DNA from: Oceanicella sp. SM1341
GTDB taxonomy: Bacteria > Pseudomonadota > Alphaproteobacteria > Rhodobacterales > Rhodobacteraceae
Direction: 5' to 3'
Length of the DNA stretch: 32,000 bases
NCBI RefSeq assembly: GCF_003448965.1
Contig: NZ_QRGC01000030.1
Coordinates: 6,991 to 38,990, forward strand
Shown here piece after piece: positions 5,346-12,796 of this stretch. Under the pieces are notes generated by a model that saw nothing but the letters and a program-made list of their open reading frames with translations, was not told where the DNA came from and did not search any database. Position numbers and translations under genes: made by a program. The stretch's first letter is position 1. Each line of letters begins with the position of its first letter.

Positions 5346-5626
5346 TGCCGGGCGGTGTAGATCAGGGTGGAGACGTTCCCGGCTATTCGGTCCCGCTGCA
5401 CCGGGCGCTCAGCGAGCCGATCCTGCTTGGCGGCGCACCGCGTGCCATCGCCATCCTGAACGGCACACTCGCCGGAGCGGTGGGTCTCGGACTGCGCCTC
5501 TGGCTCGTCGGCATCGCCATCTGGGCGATCGGGCATTTCGCGGCGGTGTGGGCGGCCAAGCGCGATCCGCTCTTCGTCGAGGTCGGCCGCCGCCATCTGC
5601 GCATTCCCGCGCATCTCACGGTCTGA
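5345..5626 (+). CDS. trbD: TrbD (VirB3 family)
   Basis: 93 aa. The ATG shares one nt with the trbC stop (TGATG). The sequence PLHRALSEPILLGGAPR followed by a hydrophobic hairpin is typical of TrbD. The longer track ORF from 4847 is an upstream extension that overlaps trbB and trbC. Confidence 0.85.
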   Translation: MPGGVDQGGDVPGYSVPLHRALSEPILLGGAPRAIAILNGTLAGAVGLGLRLWLVGIAIWAIGHFAAVWAAKRDPLFVEVGRRHLRIPAHLTV

Positions 5627-5640
5627 GGGGAAGCGCCGCC

Positions 5641-8127
5641 ATGATGAACCTCGCCGAATACCGCAATAGAAACGCCCGTCTCGCCGATTACCTCCCCTGG
5701 GTGGCGCTGGCCGGTTCCGGCATCGTGCTCAACAAGGATGGCAGCTTCCAGCGCACGGCGCGGTTTCGCGGTCCCGATCTGGATTCCGCGGTGCCGGCGG
5801 AGCTGGTCGCGGTCGCGGGCCGTCTCAACAACGCTTTCCGCCGGCTCGGTTCGGGCTGGGCGATCTTCGTCGAGGCGCAGCGCAATCCGGCCGCGGTCTA
5901 CCCCGTCAGCACGTTTCCCGATGCAGCGTCCGCATTGGTCGATGCCGAGCGCAAAGCGGATTTCGAACAGGCGGGGTCACATTTCGAATCTTCGTATTTC
6001 CTGACCTTCACCTGGCTGCCGCCGGCCGAGGACGCCGCCCGCGCCGAGACCTGGCTTTACGAAGGCCGCGAGAAGACCGGCATCGATGCGCACGAAGCGC
6101 TGAACGGCTTCGCCGATCGCACCGACCGGCTGCTCAACCTGATCGAAGCCTTCATGCCGGACTGCCGCTGGCTCGATGACGGCGAGACCCTGACCTACCT
6201 GCATGGCTGCATTTCCACGCAGCGCCATCGCGTCCGTGTCCCCGAGACGCCCATGTATCTTGACGCGCTCTTGGCCGATCAGCCGCTCACGGGCGGGCTG
6301 GAACCGCGTCTGGGATCGGCGCATCTGCGCGTTCTCACAATCACCGGCTTTCCGACTGCGACGACGCCGGGCCTGCTGGACGAGTTGAACCGGCTGGCCT
6401 TTCCCTATCGCTGGTCCACCCGGGCGATCCTGCTTGACAAGAGCGATGCGGTGAAGCTGCTGACGAAGATCCGCCGCCAGTGGTTTGCCAAGCGCAAGTC
6501 CATCGCCGCGATCCTCAAGGAAGTGATGACCAACGAGCAATCCGTGCTCGTGGACACAGATGCCTCCAACAAGGCGGCCGATGCTGATCTCGCGCTGCAG
6601 GAGCTTGGCGCAGACTATGCCGGCATCGCCTATGTCACCGCGACGGTCACGGTGTCCGACGCCGATCCACGCATTGCCGACGAGAAGCTGCGCCTCGTCG
6701 AGAAGGTGATCCAGGGCCGCGACTTCACCGCGATGGCCGAGACCATCAATGCGGTGGACGCTTGGCTCGGCAGTCTACCCGGTCATGTCTATGCCAATGT
6801 CCGGCAACCGCCGATCAGCACTTTGAATCTCGCCCACATGATCCCCCTGAGCGCTGTGTGGGCGGGGCCGGAACGGGGAGGTCCGAGCAGTGATGGGCAT
6901 TTCACAGCGCCCCCGCTGCTCTTCGGCAAGACCGAAGGCTCTACCCCGTTCCGGTTTTCCCTTCATGTCAGCGATGTCGGGCATACGCTCGTCGTCGGCC
7001 CGACCGGCGCGGGCAAGTCCGTGCTGCTGGCGCTTATGGCGCTGCAGTTCCGCCGATATGCCGGTGCCCAGGTCTTTGCCTTCGACTTCGGAGGGTCGAT
7101 CCGTGCCGCCGCGCTCGCCATGGGCGGCGACTGGCACGATCTTGGTGGCGGGCTCAGTGAGGGATCAGAATCTTCCGTCAGCCTGCAGCCGCTCACCCGC
7201 GTCGATGACAGCGCCGAGCGCGCCTGGGCTGCCGACTGGATCGGCGCGATCCTGAAGCGCGAAGGTGTCGCGGTCACGCCCGAGGTGAAGGAGCATCTCT
7301 GGACGGCGCTGACCTCGCTGGCCTCGGCGCCGGTCGAGGAGCGCACCATCACCGGGCTGTCAGTCCTCCTTCAATCCAACGACTTGAAGCAGGCCTTGCG
7401 TCCCTATTGCTTCGGTGGCGCCTGGGGGCGGTTGCTGGATGCCGAAGACGAACATCTGGGCCATTCCACGGTCCAGGCTTTCGAGACGGAAGGGCTGATC
7501 GGGACCGAGGCGGCCCCCGCCGTGCTCGCCTATCTGTTCCACCGGATCGAAGGTCGCCTCGACGGTTCGCCGACGCTGATCATCGTCGATGAAGGCTGGC
7601 TCGCGCTCGATGACGAGGGGTTCGCCGACCAGCTCCGCGAGTGGCTGAAGACCCTTCGCAAGAAGAACGCCTCCGTCATCTTCGCCACCCAGTCGCTGAG
7701 CGACATCGATGGTAGTCCGATCGCGCCGGCGATCATCGAGAGCTGCCCGACCCGGATACTGCTCCCGAACGAACGTGCGATCGAGCCGCAGATCACCGCC
7801 ATCTATCGCCGCTTCGGCCTCAATGACCGCCAGATCGAGATCCTCGCACGGGCCATGCCCAAGCGCGACTACTACTGCCAGTCGCGGCGTGGAAATCGCC
7901 TGTTCGAGCTGGGCCTGTCGGAGGTGGCGCTGTGCCTTTGTGCCGCGTCGTCGCGCCAGCATCAGCAGCGCATCGCCGAGATCCACGCCCGAACCGGCAC
8001 CGACGGCTTCCTCCACGATTGGCTCGCGGAAAACAGCCTCGCCTGGGCGGCCGACATGATCGCCGACCTCACCAACCTCGCGTCCCGGTCTCCCATGCCC
8101 ACCACCAACGAGGAAGTTCCGACATGA
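5641..8127 (+). CDS. trbE: Conjugal transfer ATPase TrbE (VirB4 family)
   Basis: 828 aa counted from ATG 5641 (MMNLAEYRNRNARLADYLPW). Walker A is VVGPTGAGKS and the Walker B-like segment is LIIVDEGW. The position after trbD is conserved. Confidence 0.95.
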   Translation: MMNLAEYRNRNARLADYLPWVALAGSGIVLNKDGSFQRTARFRGPDLDSAVPAELVAVAGRLNNAFRRLGSGWAIFVEAQRNPAAVYPVSTFPDAASALVDAERKADFEQAGSHFESSYFLTFTWLPPAEDAARAETWLYEGREKTGIDAHEALNGFADRTDRLLNLIEAFMPDCRWLDDGETLTYLHGCISTQRHRVRVPETPMYLDALLADQPLTGGLEPRLGSAHLRVLTITGFPTATTPGLLDELNRLAFPYRWSTRAILLDKSDAVKLLTKIRRQWFAKRKSIAAILKEVMTNEQSVLVDTDASNKAADADLALQELGADYAGIAYVTATVTVSDADPRIADEKLRLVEKVIQGRDFTAMAETINAVDAWLGSLPGHVYANVRQPPISTLNLAHMIPLSAVWAGPERGGPSSDGHFTAPPLLFGKTEGSTPFRFSLHVSDVGHTLVVGPTGAGKSVLLALMALQFRRYAGAQVFAFDFGGSIRAAALAMGGDWHDLGGGLSEGSESSVSLQPLTRVDDSAERAWAADWIGAILKREGVAVTPEVKEHLWTALTSLASAPVEERTITGLSVLLQSNDLKQALRPYCFGGAWGRLLDAEDEHLGHSTVQAFETEGLIGTEAAPAVLAYLFHRIEGRLDGSPTLIIVDEGWLALDDEGFADQLREWLKTLRKKNASVIFATQSLSDIDGSPIAPAIIESCPTRILLPNERAIEPQITAIYRRFGLNDRQIEILARAMPKRDYYCQSRRGNRLFELGLSEVALCLCAASSRQHQQRIAEIHARTGTDGFLHDWLAENSLAWAADMIADLTNLASRSPMPTTNEEVPT

Positions 8128-8885
8128 TCCGCACCCGATCCAGCGCCCGGCGCTTCGCCCTGGCGCTTCTCAGCGCGCCCGTTCTTCTGACCCCGATACT
8201 GGCGACGCCCGCCTATGCGATCATCGTGTTCGATCCCTCGAACTACGCACAAAACGTCCTGACGGCGGCGCGCGCGCTCGAACAGATCAACAATCAGATC
8301 ACCTCGCTTCAGAACCAGGCGCAGATGCTGATCAACCAGGCCCGCAACCTCGCGAGCCTTCCGTTTTCCTCGCTGCAACAGCTTCAGCAATCCGTGCAGC
8401 GCACCCAGCAACTTCTCGCCCAAGCGCAGAACATCGCCTACAACGTGCAGCGGATCGATCAGGCGTTTCAGACCAAATACGCCAATGTCTCGATGTCCGC
8501 ATCGGACGCGCAGCTCGTCGCCGATGCCAGAACCCGCTGGCAGAACACCGTGGGCGGCCTGCAGGACGCCATGCGCGTACAGGCAACCGTCGTCGGCAAT
8601 ATCGAGACCAACCGCCAGCAGATGTCGGCGCTGGTGGGCGCGAGCCAGTCAGCGACGGGCGCTCTCCAGGCGACGCAGGCTGGCAACCAGCTTCTCGCCC
8701 TGCAGGCCCAGCAGCTCTCCGACCTCACAGCCGTCATCTCCGCGAATGGTCGCGCGCAGGCCCTGCACGATGCCGAGCAGGCCGCCGCGGCTGAACAGGG
8801 CCGCGAACAGCGTCGCCGCTTCCTGACCCCCGGTTCGGGCTACCAGCCCGGCAACGCCCGGATGTTCCCGGGCAGCGACAGTTGA
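8124..8885 (+). CDS. trbJ: TrbJ (VirB5-like)
   Basis: There is an ATGA overlap with the trbE stop. A signal peptide (LLTPILATPAYA) is followed by a Q/L-rich coiled-coil-like sequence typical of TrbJ. Confidence 0.85.
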   Translation: MIRTRSSARRFALALLSAPVLLTPILATPAYAIIVFDPSNYAQNVLTAARALEQINNQITSLQNQAQMLINQARNLASLPFSSLQQLQQSVQRTQQLLAQAQNIAYNVQRIDQAFQTKYANVSMSASDAQLVADARTRWQNTVGGLQDAMRVQATVVGNIETNRQQMSALVGASQSATGALQATQAGNQLLALQAQQLSDLTAVISANGRAQALHDAEQAAAAEQGREQRRRFLTPGSGYQPGNARMFPGSDS

Positions 8886-8895
8886 GGGCAGGGCG

Positions 8896-9165
8896 ATGGA
8901 CGGCAAGACCCTCGCACGCATCGGCGCCATCGTCTTCGTCGCGGTCGCGATCACCGCCACCGTGATCCAGATGACCCGCAAAGATGCGGTGCCTCCAGCG
9001 CCCGCCGCGTCCTCCGCGCCGACGGCGGACAGGCAAGATCCGCTGAGCGCGGAGCTAACCCGATGCAGCCAGGCCGGAGAAGCCGCCACACATGATCCAG
9101 CCTGCCTTAATGCCTGGGCCGAGAACCGTCGGCGTTTCCTCGGTCACAGCAGCGAAGGGCGCTGA
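8896..9165 (+). CDS. trbK: Putative entry-exclusion protein TrbK-alt
   Basis: 89 aa. The N-terminal TM segment is LARIGAIVFVAVAITATVI and the C-terminal motif is CLNAWAENRRRFLG. It sits between trbJ and trbL. Confidence 0.6.
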   Translation: MDGKTLARIGAIVFVAVAITATVIQMTRKDAVPPAPAASSAPTADRQDPLSAELTRCSQAGEAATHDPACLNAWAENRRRFLGHSSEGR

Positions 9166-9229
9166 ACGTGAAAGTAGAGATGAAGCGCTCCATCGCCTTC
9201 CGGAGACGAGTTTCTCTATCCCTCTTCCC

Positions 9230-9263
9230 GAACCGGACATGCAGGTTTCCAAGCATCCGGCTC
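9230..9263 (-). ncRNA. Group II intron domain V
   Basis: The minus strand reads GAGCCGGATGCTTGGAAACCTGCATGTCCGGTTC. This is a 34-nt hairpin with the AGC triad, a G-U wobble, a 2-nt bulge and a GAAA-type apical loop. Confidence 0.9.
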
Positions 9264-9299
9264 TCCATGCACGGGCGGTCGTCAGCCCGTGGGTGTGCC

Positions 9300-10826
9300 T
9301 CAAACGCGTCTGAGGCGCGCGAACGCAGTCCAGAAGTCAAGCAGGGTTTCCCGATGCCTGTTTTCCCATCTTGCGTTCCATCCGTTCGGTTTCTCGATTC
9401 GCTGTTCCGGGTAACGCATGGTTCCTCCGTCAGTGAAGAACCGCAGGCGTCTGGACCCTTCGGTCCATTGCCGTCGTTTTCCGGGGGCGCTGAGATGATA
9501 GCGGCGCCGCAGGGTCGGCCAACCCGCATTGCCGTGCTTCATCTTCAACCAGCGCCCGACGCGCTGCCATATCCAGAAGTCGAGATGGCTGAACCGACCG
9601 TGCGCGCCTGTGGCGTAACGGTAATAGTTCCTCCACCCCGTGATGACCGGATTGAGCCTGTCGATGACGTAGGCAAGGTCGCGTCCCGTGGGGATGCCCC
9701 TCACCATGACCTTGATCTTGTGGCGCAGGTCGTTCAGCTTTCCCTTCGGGATGAAGAGATTGCCGACCCATCGGCCTGTCCGACAGGCTCTGGTCTGCGC
9801 CACCCGGTAGCCGAGGAAGTCGAAGCCTTCCCTGACATCGGTGATCCGGGTCTTTTCCATCGACAGTTCCATGCGAAGCTCCGTCTTCAGGAACTCCGCC
9901 AGCGCGAGCTTTTCCGCTTCCGCCTGCTCCCGCGTGCCATCCACGAGAACGACGAAGTCGTCCGCGTATCGCACCATGTAGAGCACCGGCCGACCCCTCT
10001 TGTGGTCTCTGACCCTTCGGGCCGCCGGATTGATGCTCGGTTCGCGGGGGCGGCCTGTCCACCATCCATACCGCTCGTCGATGGCTGTCAGGTAGATGTT
10101 CGACAGCATCGGCGAGATGATCCCGCCTTGCGGCGAGCCGGTGACGGGGTGGCGTTCGGTCCCTTCGACCATCACACCGGCTTTCAGGAACGAGAGGATC
10201 AGCGCCAGCACCTTGCGGTCGCCGATGCGTTTCCGGACCCGCTCCATCATGACGTGATGATCGATGGCGTCGAAGCAGCCCTTGATGTCTCCCTCTATGA
10301 CATAGCGATAGACCGAGGGTCCGCGCTTTGTCGGGTGAAGGAACCTCTGGATTCTTGCCAGAGCATCGTGGGTGCTTCGACCGCGCCGGAACCCGTAGGA
10401 GGTCGGATAGAAGTCCGCCTCGAAGATAGGCTCCAGGACCAGCTTCAAAGCCATCTGCACCAGACGATCGACCAACGTTGGAATGCCGAGTGGCCGGAAC
10501 TGCCCCGGTTTGCCGGGCTTTGGGATAAGCCGCTGCCTGACCGGTTGGGGACGATAGGTTCCGTTGCGAAGCACCTCGCGTATCTCATCGAGGAACCCTG
10601 CTGCGCCACCGGGACGCTGTTCGACCATGCGCCGCGTCACCCCGTCGGTGCCGGGTGTCTGGCTGCCCCGATTACCGGACAGCCTTCGCCACGCCTCCTC
10701 AAGGAATCGGCGGTCGCATACGAGATTGAACAGACCAGCGAAGACCTTGTCGGGGTCTTCGTTGCTCCACCGATACAGCTTGCGCTGCATGTCGAGGACG
10801 AACAAGATATTCATCTCGTTGGACAT
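9300..10826 (-). CDS. Group II intron reverse transcriptase/maturase (no En domain)
   Basis: 508 aa from the ATG at 10826, preceded by AGGAGG with a 7 nt spacer. RT motifs present: IPKPGKPGQFRPLGIPTLVDRLVQ, DIKGCFD, GSPQGGIISPMLSNIYL, RYADDFVVL. The maturase X motif is ITGWRNYYRYA. The C-terminal ~90 aa contain no Cys and no HNH signature. Confidence 0.93.
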   Translation of the reverse strand: MSNEMNILFVLDMQRKLYRWSNEDPDKVFAGLFNLVCDRRFLEEAWRRLSGNRGSQTPGTDGVTRRMVEQRPGGAAGFLDEIREVLRNGTYRPQPVRQRLIPKPGKPGQFRPLGIPTLVDRLVQMALKLVLEPIFEADFYPTSYGFRRGRSTHDALARIQRFLHPTKRGPSVYRYVIEGDIKGCFDAIDHHVMMERVRKRIGDRKVLALILSFLKAGVMVEGTERHPVTGSPQGGIISPMLSNIYLTAIDERYGWWTGRPREPSINPAARRVRDHKRGRPVLYMVRYADDFVVLVDGTREQAEAEKLALAEFLKTELRMELSMEKTRITDVREGFDFLGYRVAQTRACRTGRWVGNLFIPKGKLNDLRHKIKVMVRGIPTGRDLAYVIDRLNPVITGWRNYYRYATGAHGRFSHLDFWIWQRVGRWLKMKHGNAGWPTLRRRYHLSAPGKRRQWTEGSRRLRFFTDGGTMRYPEQRIEKPNGWNARWENRHRETLLDFWTAFARLRRV

Positions 10827-11464
10827 GGGTCCACCTCCTGCCTGCTCGCTGTATCCACTGCCTTCCTTCGCCATGTGGACGGCTTTCCCGTCCCCGGACT
10901 ACTACGAAGGCTCCGCCCCTCACCATCGCGGTCGCTGGTCGCTTCAGCCATCCGGGGTCCGACTGTTCCGGAAGCGACGGCAAGGTTCTTAGGTTCCGTA
11001 ACTGATCTCTCGCCTGCTTTAGGCGCCGACTTTACCCCGTGTGGATTCCGACCCCGATACCGCGCAAGCTCATATCGAGGCTGGCGCACGGCACGCCGCA
11101 CACCCCCAGCCCATGTGTCCATAGCACGGGCCAACGCTCCACAAATCTGCGGTTCGCACCACAGACCGACCCGCCGACTTCCGAGTTGGCGTGTCTCCGC
11201 GCGTAACGAGGCGTCCGCCATCGGTTCGGTTTCCCTCGCCATGGCAGGCTCGCTGGCCGGACCACGTACGGGATCGGAAGTCCCCGCCCGTCCGGCTTTG
11301 ATGGGTTCTGCTGATTTATGGCTCCCCGGAAGCACCCGGTTTGCCTCACCCATCGGCTTGTCACCGCATGTTGCGCCACACGGTGCGCGGGGCCTTTCAT
11401 CCCGCGAGATCAGAAACGACAATAAAATCAAAGCACTCCTTTCTTTGATCAGGACCTAACGCAC

Positions 11465-12796
11465 ATGGGCAACACCGGCGTCATCGATCACTTCCTCGAT
11501 GTCTTTACCCGCTACATCGACGGCGGCTTCGGTCTGCTTGGCGGCGAGGTCGGTTTCATCGCCACCACGCTGATCGTCATCGACGTGACGCTGGCCGCGC
11601 TCTTCTGGTCCTGGGGCGCCGACGACGACATCATGGCGCGGCTCGTCAAGAAGACGCTTTTCGTCGGTGTTTTCGCCTACATCATCTCCAACTGGAACAA
11701 TCTGGCCCGGATCGTTTTCGAAAGCTTCGCGGGGCTCGGCCTGAAGGCGTCCGGCACGGGCTTTACCACGGCCCAGCTTCTCCAGCCCGGCAAGGTCGCC
11801 CAGACCGGCCTTGATGCGGGGAGGCCGCTGCTCGATTCCATCTCGAACCTGATGGGCTATTGGTCCTTCTTCGAGAATTTCATCCAGATCGCCTGCATGT
11901 TCTTCGCCTGGGCGCTGGTGCTCTTGGCCTTCTTCATCCTCGCCATCCAGCTCTTCGTCACGCTGATCGAGTTCAAGCTGACGACGCTCGCCGGCTTCGT
12001 GCTGATCCCCTTCGGTCTCTTCGGCAAGTCCGCCTTCATGGCCGAGCGGGTGCTCGGTAACGTCATCTCCTCGGGCATCAAGGTTCTGGTGCTCGCCGTT
12101 ATCATCGGTATCGGCTCGACACTCTTTTCCGAATTCGCCGCAGGGTTTGGCGGCGCGACACCGACCATCGACGATGCGATGGCGATCGTGCTGGCAGCCC
12201 TTTCACTGCTTGGCCTCGGCATTTTCGGCCCCGGTATCGCAACGGGGCTCGTCTCCGGCGGTCCCCAGCTTGGCGCCGGATCGGCGATCGGCAGCGGTCT
12301 TGCTGCCGGCGGCATGGTCGTCGCGGGCGGCGCGGCGCTCGGGGCTGCGGCCTCCGGTGGCGCATCTCTCCTTGGCGGAGCGGCGGCAGCCGCCCGTGGT
12401 GGGGCCGCGCTCGCGGGCGGGGCATCCACCGCCTACAGCCTCGGCGCCGCCGGACAGACCGGCGCGTCCGCCGTTGCATCTGGCCTCGGCAATGTCGCCA
12501 GCACCGGCGCATCGCAGGCTGGATCTGCCTTGGTCAGCCCGCTCAGACGCGCCGCGGGATCGATGCGCGGCAGCTTCGAGGCCGGTGGGCGTGCCGTCTC
12601 CGGCGAAGCCGCTGCCGATGAACGTGCATCGGCCGCAGCCGCAGCCTCATCTGCGCCCGACAGCCCGCCTGCCTGGGCAAAGCGCATGAAGCGCTCCCAA
12701 GCCATGTCCCACGGGATGCAGGTCGCAGCCCATTCCGTCCGCAGCGGCGACAGCCACGGCAGCGGCTCTTCCGTCAACACCTCCGAAAGCGACTGA
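11465..12796 (+). CDS. trbL: TrbL (VirB6 family)
   Basis: 443 aa. The N-terminus GVIDHFLDVFTRYIDGGFGLLGGEVGFIATTLIVIDVTLA is typical of TrbL. It has multiple TM segments and a Gly/Ala-rich C-terminal tail. Confidence 0.93.
   Translation: MGNTGVIDHFLDVFTRYIDGGFGLLGGEVGFIATTLIVIDVTLAALFWSWGADDDIMARLVKKTLFVGVFAYIISNWNNLARIVFESFAGLGLKASGTGFTTAQLLQPGKVAQTGLDAGRPLLDSISNLMGYWSFFENFIQIACMFFAWALVLLAFFILAIQLFVTLIEFKLTTLAGFVLIPFGLFGKSAFMAERVLGNVISSGIKVLVLAVIIGIGSTLFSEFAAGFGGATPTIDDAMAIVLAALSLLGLGIFGPGIATGLVSGGPQLGAGSAIGSGLAAGGMVVAGGAALGAAASGGASLLGGAAAAARGGAALAGGASTAYSLGAAGQTGASAVASGLGNVASTGASQAGSALVSPLRRAAGSMRGSFEAGGRAVSGEAAADERASAAAAASSAPDSPPAWAKRMKRSQAMSHGMQVAAHSVRSGDSHGSGSSVNTSESD

Follow-up and report, generated by a model that had tools for sequence, protein, structure and literature searches.

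How can an operon tolerate an insertion that is not spliceable from its mRNA? The question is raised by a group II intron in Oceanicella sp. SM1341 (Alphaproteobacteria, Rhodobacteraceae; NCBI RefSeq assembly GCF_003448965.1), which lies antisense within a trb conjugation operon, between the trbK and trbL genes. The DNA analyzed is a stretch of 32,000 nucleotides (nt) of contig NZ_QRGC01000030.1 (positions 6,991 to 38,990 of the forward strand), referred to below as the window, and all coordinates are positions in it. Because of the antisense orientation, the trb mRNA contains 2.3 kb of unspliceable intron complement, and since the insertion falls between the Shine-Dalgarno (SD) sequence of trbL and its start codon, the SD has been parted from its ATG. 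In the direction of the operon, the intron complement is spanned by one long open reading frame (ORF), T2. From comparison of the related sequences described below we conclude that, in a clade of related introns, selection keeps T2 free of stop codons from one end to the other.

The open frame and its copies in related introns

On the + strand, frame 0 stays open between two TAA codons, from 9111, just past the one at 9108-9110, up to the one at 11457-11459, and its first start codon is the GTG at 9168, giving a predicted product of 763 amino acids. In these respects, as in placing the T2 stop 5 nt before the trbL ATG at 11465, the first-pass annotation of this DNA was accurate, whereas three of its smaller measurements required correction: the gap between the trbK TGA and GTG 9168 is 2 nt rather than 3, the motif GAAGGG (9154-9159) lies 8 nt upstream of the GTG rather than 7, and the intron has 2297 nt rather than 2291. 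T2 is the in-phase, codon-for-codon reverse complement of the reverse transcriptase (RT) gene of the intron and runs on into the ribozyme parts, covering about 720 nt of non-coding intron, that is, a 5' part of about 590 nt and a 3' part of about 130 nt that comprises the end of domain IV and domains V and VI. The predicted product is indeed rich in Ala, Arg, and Pro (about 10% each), as had been noted before; a Pfam search of it revealed no domain, and no homologue was found among called proteins.

Copies of the intron were gathered by homology search with the RT protein, look-up of the encoding contigs, and metagenome scans; the scans of genome contigs and metagenomes with the RT yielded mostly distant relatives, and the informative ones are those described here. 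Fifteen close copies with 85-91% nucleotide identity are located on different plasmids or contigs, among them those of Bradyrhizobium sp. Arg314 (L013), Sphingopyxis (L014-L016), and Mesorhizobium (L100), as well as copies in Tara and soil metagenomes (L102-L107) and in Logan contigs (L017-L019). Nearly all of them lie antisense at the trbL start codon. The first-pass annotation had proposed to look for stops in the same frame in other copies of the intron. Within the close clade there are none: in 15 of 15 close copies the T2 frame is open over the whole intron except for the terminal TAA. It is also fully open in L020 (77-80% identity), which lies at the start of the relaxase gene traA (MobA/MobL), and in L025 (65%), at the start of a different gene. 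Farther copies (L002-L004, L021-L024, L028, L037, and L108-L112) carry from 1 to 13 T2 stops. The outgroups share 72-77% nucleotide identity with this intron and show 5-13 stops in the T2 frame; L002 (NZ_CP096252.1), L003, and L004 come from Bradyrhizobium and Shinella plasmids. In the tree of intron DNA the open copies fall into one group.

By this comparison, the openness is a property of the intron clade and not of a single insertion, and its occurrence at the traA site and at one other gene start argues that selection acts on the intron lineage across sites. The sites themselves have a feature in common, since throughout the family the insertion is antisense and falls 0-12 nt from a start codon, be it that of trbL, traA, a DUF736 gene, or another gene. 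The outgroups L002, L003, and L004 are located outside trb operons, antisense and about 2-11 nt from the starts of other genes, for example the DUF736 gene. These positions suggest that targeting of translation-initiation regions is a habit of the whole family.

One metagenome copy at a trbL GTG start, L107 (1370-1450), begins with the non-canonical CTGCG where GTGCG is the rule and carries two stops of the T2 frame directly at this 5' end; the frame is otherwise open in the RT.

Codon avoidance and turnover of stop codons

Within the RT gene, T2 stops can arise only from the sense codons TTA, CTA, and TCA, and none of the 524 codons of the RT ORF in the window is one of these. The probability of such an absence is about 0.075 at the genome-wide codon usage of the 71%-GC host and 0.006 at the rates of the outgroup introns, the latter for the 51 Leu-CTN and Ser-TCN codons of this RT. 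In the open clade as a whole, CTA accounts for 0 of 256 Leu-CTN codons, TCA for 0 of 67 Ser-TCN codons, and TTA for 0 of 26 (0/349 together), whereas in the other fourfold degenerate families A takes the third position in 8-26% of the codons (Val 15/186, Ala 34/192, Gly 70/273, Pro 18/163, Thr 26/164, Arg 52/332). The outgroup RTs contain CTA at 16 of 239 and TCA at 16 of 81 positions, and the pooled difference between the open clade and the outgroups has a Fisher p of 5e-10, a pseudo-replicated value. Within the clade, 0 of 30 Leu and Ser sites with a variable third base change to A, compared with 46 of 108 other fourfold sites at which some clade member has an A.

Similarly, in the 5' non-coding part of the intron the clade members show 4-13 variable stop positions in each of the four other frames and none in T2. 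The outgroups share T2 stops at intron positions 41, 383, and 425, which are ancestral and have disappeared from the clade.

The simplest alternative is that T2 is a functionless shadow ORF of the kind that GC-rich genes often carry on their antisense strand, and the first-pass annotation had allowed that the frame could equally be due to chance. In this genome, in-phase antisense frames are open in about 30% of ORFs of at least 300 amino acids and in 17-20% of those of at least 600, which speaks for such an origin. The shuffling that the same annotation had proposed as a control gives a divided answer for the non-coding parts: dinucleotide shuffles often leave the 132-nt 3' part open (P=0.36) and seldom the 579-nt 5' part in the T2 frame (P=0.03). 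In a shadow ORF, codon usage by itself accounts for the openness and nothing further is conserved, whereas T2 remains open in more than 15 diverged copies in which other frames show turnover of stops, and is accompanied by a specific avoidance of TTA, CTA, and TCA relative to the outgroups. On these shuffle, codon, and comparative data the chance origin was rejected, and we consider it extremely improbable.

Could the missing codons instead reflect some other constraint on the intron strand, such as avoidance of UUA, CUA, and UCA as sites for an RNase or another protein, or adaptation to tRNA pools, with the open frame as a by-product? A second frame that is nearly stop-free in domains I-III across the family (10811-11431) would fit an explanation of this kind. 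The codons avoided, however, are exactly the three complements of stop codons, while GUA, GCA, GGA, CCA, ACA, and CGA are not avoided; the use of GTA, which also contains TA, excludes a general avoidance of UpA. Moreover, CTA and TCA are in free use among the outgroups of the family, and the constraint is thus peculiar to this clade and to the codons complementary to stops. A by-product of this sort is therefore quite unlikely in our view.

The second frame itself, on the - strand of the window, encodes 206 amino acids from a TTG start and overlaps the beginning of the RT gene; all members of the family, the outgroups among them, have it almost without stops through domains I-III. Gene callers have annotated it in several assemblies (L014 and L102-L106), and it displays no codon-position bias in its substitutions. 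It may represent an effect of composition or an upstream ORF whose translation is coupled to that of the intron-encoded protein.

A true overlapping antisense gene, with a meaningful amino acid sequence, would account for a long conserved ORF that has start codons and a defined end. Such a gene should display third-position bias and have homologues, and T2 has neither. Substitutions in the 5' non-coding part are spread evenly over the T2 codon positions (59/51/59), and in the RT region it is the sense third positions that dominate (257 versus 102 and 115). The even spread in the 5' part means that the T2 protein sequence is not conserved and that only the absence of stops is kept. Together with the lack of homologues among called proteins and of any Pfam domain, the low-complexity Ala/Arg/Pro-rich composition, and the different length and end of the frame at the traA site (L020), this makes a functional T2 protein very unlikely; as the main reason for the open frame it was rejected on the substitution spread, the lack of homologues, and the composition. 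An absence of stops that is preserved while the sequence is free to change is the signature that is expected if translation matters and the product does not.

Insertion site of the intron in the trb operon

The trb operon, of the plasmid type and encoding a VirB-like type IV secretion system, is located on the + strand in the order trbE, trbJ, trbK, trbL, trbF, trbG (see Table 1 for coordinates). The boundaries of the intron were set by the Rfam match to domains V and VI, the GUGYG/AY rules, and comparison with the 15 relatives; its 5' end is GTGCG (11464-11460, - strand), and its 3' end is ...CAC (9170-9168, - strand). The assignment to group II follows from the domain V/VI consensus, the GUGYG/AY ends seen against an intron-less relative, and an intron-encoded protein with RT and maturase domains. 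According to Pfam this protein has RT and X/maturase domains and lacks an En domain, a lack also known from other intron classes. The genome contains one copy of the intron.

Table 1. Coordinates of the intron, the open frame T2, and flanking trb features in the window
Feature	Position	Strand	Basis or remark
trbE	5548-8127	+	
trbK, entry-exclusion protein, host gene upstream of the intron	8896-9165	+	Pfam TrbK PF20084, E=2e-36; stop TGA 9163-9165
GAAGGG, original trbL Shine-Dalgarno	9154-9159	+	Sequence; intron-less reconstruction; now 8 nt before GTG 9168
Group II intron, length 2297 nt, oriented against the trb operon	9168-11464	-	Rfam RF00029; GUGYG/AY rules; 15 relatives
Intron domains V-VI, catalytic domain V with AGC triad	9265-9168	-	Rfam RF00029, E=3.9e-9
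Intron-encoded RT/maturase, 524-aa ORF	9300-10874	-	Pfam RVT_1, E=2.7e-31; GIIM, E=2.7e-15
Non-coding 5' part of the intron, domains I-III/IVa	10875-11464	-	Opposite strand carries the C-terminal part of T2, free of stops
T2, antisense open frame, 763 codons	9168-11459	+	GTG 9168; clade-wide ATG 9180; TAA 11457-11459
AGGACC, weak SD-like motif for trbL	11451-11456	+	From the complement of the intron 5' end; kept in trbL-site copies
trbL, VirB6-like, host gene downstream of the intron	11465-12796	+	Pfam TrbL PF04610, E=8.5e-57; ATG adjoins the intron

The RT ORF of 524 amino acids exceeds the 508 amino acids of most homologues, which begin at the equivalent of codon 17 (MSNEM..., about 10826), and the first 16 codons (MAKEGSGYSEQAGGGP, 10827-10874, - strand) are probably outside the real protein.

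Exact deletion of the intron yields ...GAAGGGcgcTGAac joined to ATGGGC..., and thus the insertion point is exactly the trbL start codon, between the trbL SD (GAAGGG) and the ATG. Intron-less arrangements of the same junction are known from plasmid pCHQ1 of Sphingobium indicum, which reads trbK-TAG-GC-ATG-trbL with the same MGNTGVID start, and from the metagenomic Logan contigs X1-X4, where trbK and trbL join at the positions corresponding to 11463/11464, with short variants of the trbK end. Contigs X1-X4 also bring low-depth relatives of the intron. Before the insertion, trbK and trbL were tightly coupled, by TGA-AC-ATG here, by an ATGA overlap at the L013 and L014 sites, and by TAG-GC-ATG in Sphingobium.

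According to the first-pass annotation, the pre-insertion trbL may have started at GTG 9168, with a product beginning MKMGNTG. This start was ruled out: with the intron measured at 2297 nt, the GTG is the complement of its 3'-terminal CAC, so that trbL originally began at its own ATG after trbK, and the intron-less relatives do start trbL at an ATG directly after trbK. The GTG now occupies the spacing of the old trbL SD.

The trb stretch and its 83-kb contig have a GC content of 62.6%, versus 70.8% for the 5.7-Mb genome, a gap that is consistent with a plasmid or a foreign island.

Start and stop geometry of T2

Both ends of T2 are supplied by the intron. Its ATG (9180 here) lies on the complement of CGCTTCAT, the conserved sequence at the 3' terminus of the intron; the clade and its neighbours have this start, and the outgroups L002 and L003 lack it. 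The terminal TAA of T2 corresponds to the UUA at intron positions 6-8, read as the complement. In the copies at the trbL site, 2-7 nt separate the trbK stop from the T2 start downstream, and in all of them the TAA lies 5 nt before the trbL ATG.

Two forms of the 3' end occur. The 2297-nt form (...CTACTTTCAC), found in this intron and in L100, L101, and L103-L105, places the GTG exactly at the old trbL SD spacing, whereas the 2296-nt form (...CTACCCTAC), found in L013 and L014, supplies a G followed by TAG, which serves as the trbK stop. In these two copies the trbK TAG thus comes from the complement of the intron 3' end, after a synonymous last codon.

Possible basis of host tolerance

With antisense insertion 0-12 nt from gene starts as the habit of the family, every insertion would meet the same problem, an SD split from its start codon and an unspliceable segment in the mRNA. 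The best-supported explanation of the findings above, and a moderately probable one, is that the host tolerates the insertion since translation across the antisense intron would keep the trb operon expressed. Ribosomes finishing trbK would reinitiate 2-7 nt later at a start supplied by the complement of the intron 3' end (GTG 9168, or the clade-wide ATG 9180), translate some 760 codons of meaningless protein through the intron complement, terminate at the intron-supplied TAA 5 nt before the trbL ATG, and reinitiate on trbL by translational coupling. Along the way the translating ribosomes would occupy the long transcript and so shield trbL and the genes beyond it from Rho-dependent polarity. 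The conjugation operon would still work despite the insertion, and horizontal spread of the intron-carrying plasmid could continue.

Tolerance through translation had already been suggested in the first-pass annotation. What has stood of that proposal is the frame: it is open beyond chance, it is conserved, and its TAA keeps the same distance of 5 nt from the ATG in every trbL-site copy. Its translation is a further step, which we infer only from the selection pattern, and we likewise infer the coupling to trbL and the anti-polarity effect. A broader proposal, which we hold more tentatively and which has slightly less than an even chance of being right, is that the intron lineage has adapted to antisense insertion in the initiation regions of conjugation genes by leaving its entire reverse strand open to ribosomes, which cross the element and hand over to the downstream gene.

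Several points weigh against this explanation. The compared sequences are phylogenetically related, and the p-values therefore overstate their independence. The openness sits on the complement of the intron strand, so that any constraint on that strand is a candidate cause. In relatives, the SD for initiation of T2 is weak or structured (GTAGGG before the ATG). The T2 start region is predicted to be structured and the start may be base-paired, although the minimum free energy of folding in short windows is weak evidence either way. Finally, at the traA site (L020) T2 ends 98 nt inside traA and out of frame, which implies that reinitiation coupling is not the geometry everywhere; the anti-polarity effect would still apply there.

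Promoters or terminators on the + strand inside the intron near trbL did not exceed the shuffle expectation in consensus scans, which are weak evidence, and no terminator-like sites were found in 8800-11800. One weak sigma-70-like promoter match lies in the RT region on the - strand (9495-9522), at the level expected from shuffles. A search for expression data listed no RNA run that contains the region. Translating ribosomes suppress Rho-dependent polarity. The C-richness of the intron complement, which could have marked a special Rho target, does not differ from that of the trb genes, and the anti-polarity argument thus rests on general knowledge and not on a special rut signal.

Translation across the intron might instead benefit the intron itself. 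Over 2.3 kb the trb transcript is perfectly complementary to the intron RNA, and ribosomes could keep it from pairing with that RNA, that is, from forming double-stranded RNA, attracting RNase III, and blocking splicing or retrohoming; direct selection on the intron lineage would also fit the openness at the non-trb sites of L020 and L025. Yet if T2 were left untranslated, Rho would probably truncate the antisense transcript and, if anything, help the intron, and duplex formation as a limit on group II intron activity in vivo is without supporting evidence. The position of the stop, conserved beside the trbL ATG, is more directly explained by host tolerance. A benefit of this kind to the intron is unlikely.

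Comparison with known systems

T2 resembles the shadow ORFs of GC-rich genes in being a codon-for-codon reverse complement, a frame that GC-rich codon usage often leaves open. Unlike these unselected frames, it reaches into the ribozyme domains, is conserved in diverged copies, and is accompanied by avoidance of stop-complement codons in comparison with the outgroups. The stop 5 nt before the trbL ATG and the start 2-7 nt past the trbK stop recall the translational coupling of operon genes through ATGA or TGATG overlaps. The usual coupling differs, however, in that here the upstream ORF is a 760-codon frame through a mobile element, with an apparently irrelevant product, and the coupling is putative.

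Among introns, those of group IIC (class C) insert after intrinsic terminators. They share with the lineage described here an insertion strategy of low cost to host gene expression, but the latter lies antisense in translation-initiation regions and seemingly relies on translation of the antisense strand rather than on termination sites. RmInt1 and other alphaproteobacterial introns are similar in that their intron-encoded protein combines RT and maturase and lacks the endonuclease domain, and in occurring on Rhizobiales plasmids. RmInt1 targets ISRm2011-2, whereas the clade analyzed here targets the start codons of conjugation genes. Suppression of Rho polarity by ribosomes provides the physiological logic that we propose for favouring a translated antisense frame. 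In a literature search we found no account of the maintenance of antisense ORFs by group II introns or of start-codon targeting by them.

Significance for group II introns and conjugative plasmids

The persistence of group II introns in bacteria is attributed chiefly to self-splicing or to homing to sites outside genes, for example after terminators. The lineage described here sits antisense at the starts of essential conjugation genes and is unspliceable from the host mRNA, and its selection signature points to a new way in which a mobile element may limit the cost to its host, namely by being translatable. If true, this would be a general, element-encoded way for a non-spliceable retroelement to avoid polar effects on the operon in which it resides. 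If confirmed, it would also mean that selection for host expression can reshape a ribozyme sequence, with stop codons being excluded from structured domains too, and it would explain the conservation of some long antisense ORFs through mobile elements. The translation of "junk" frames across mobile DNA would thereby become testable by simple reporter and stop-codon experiments.

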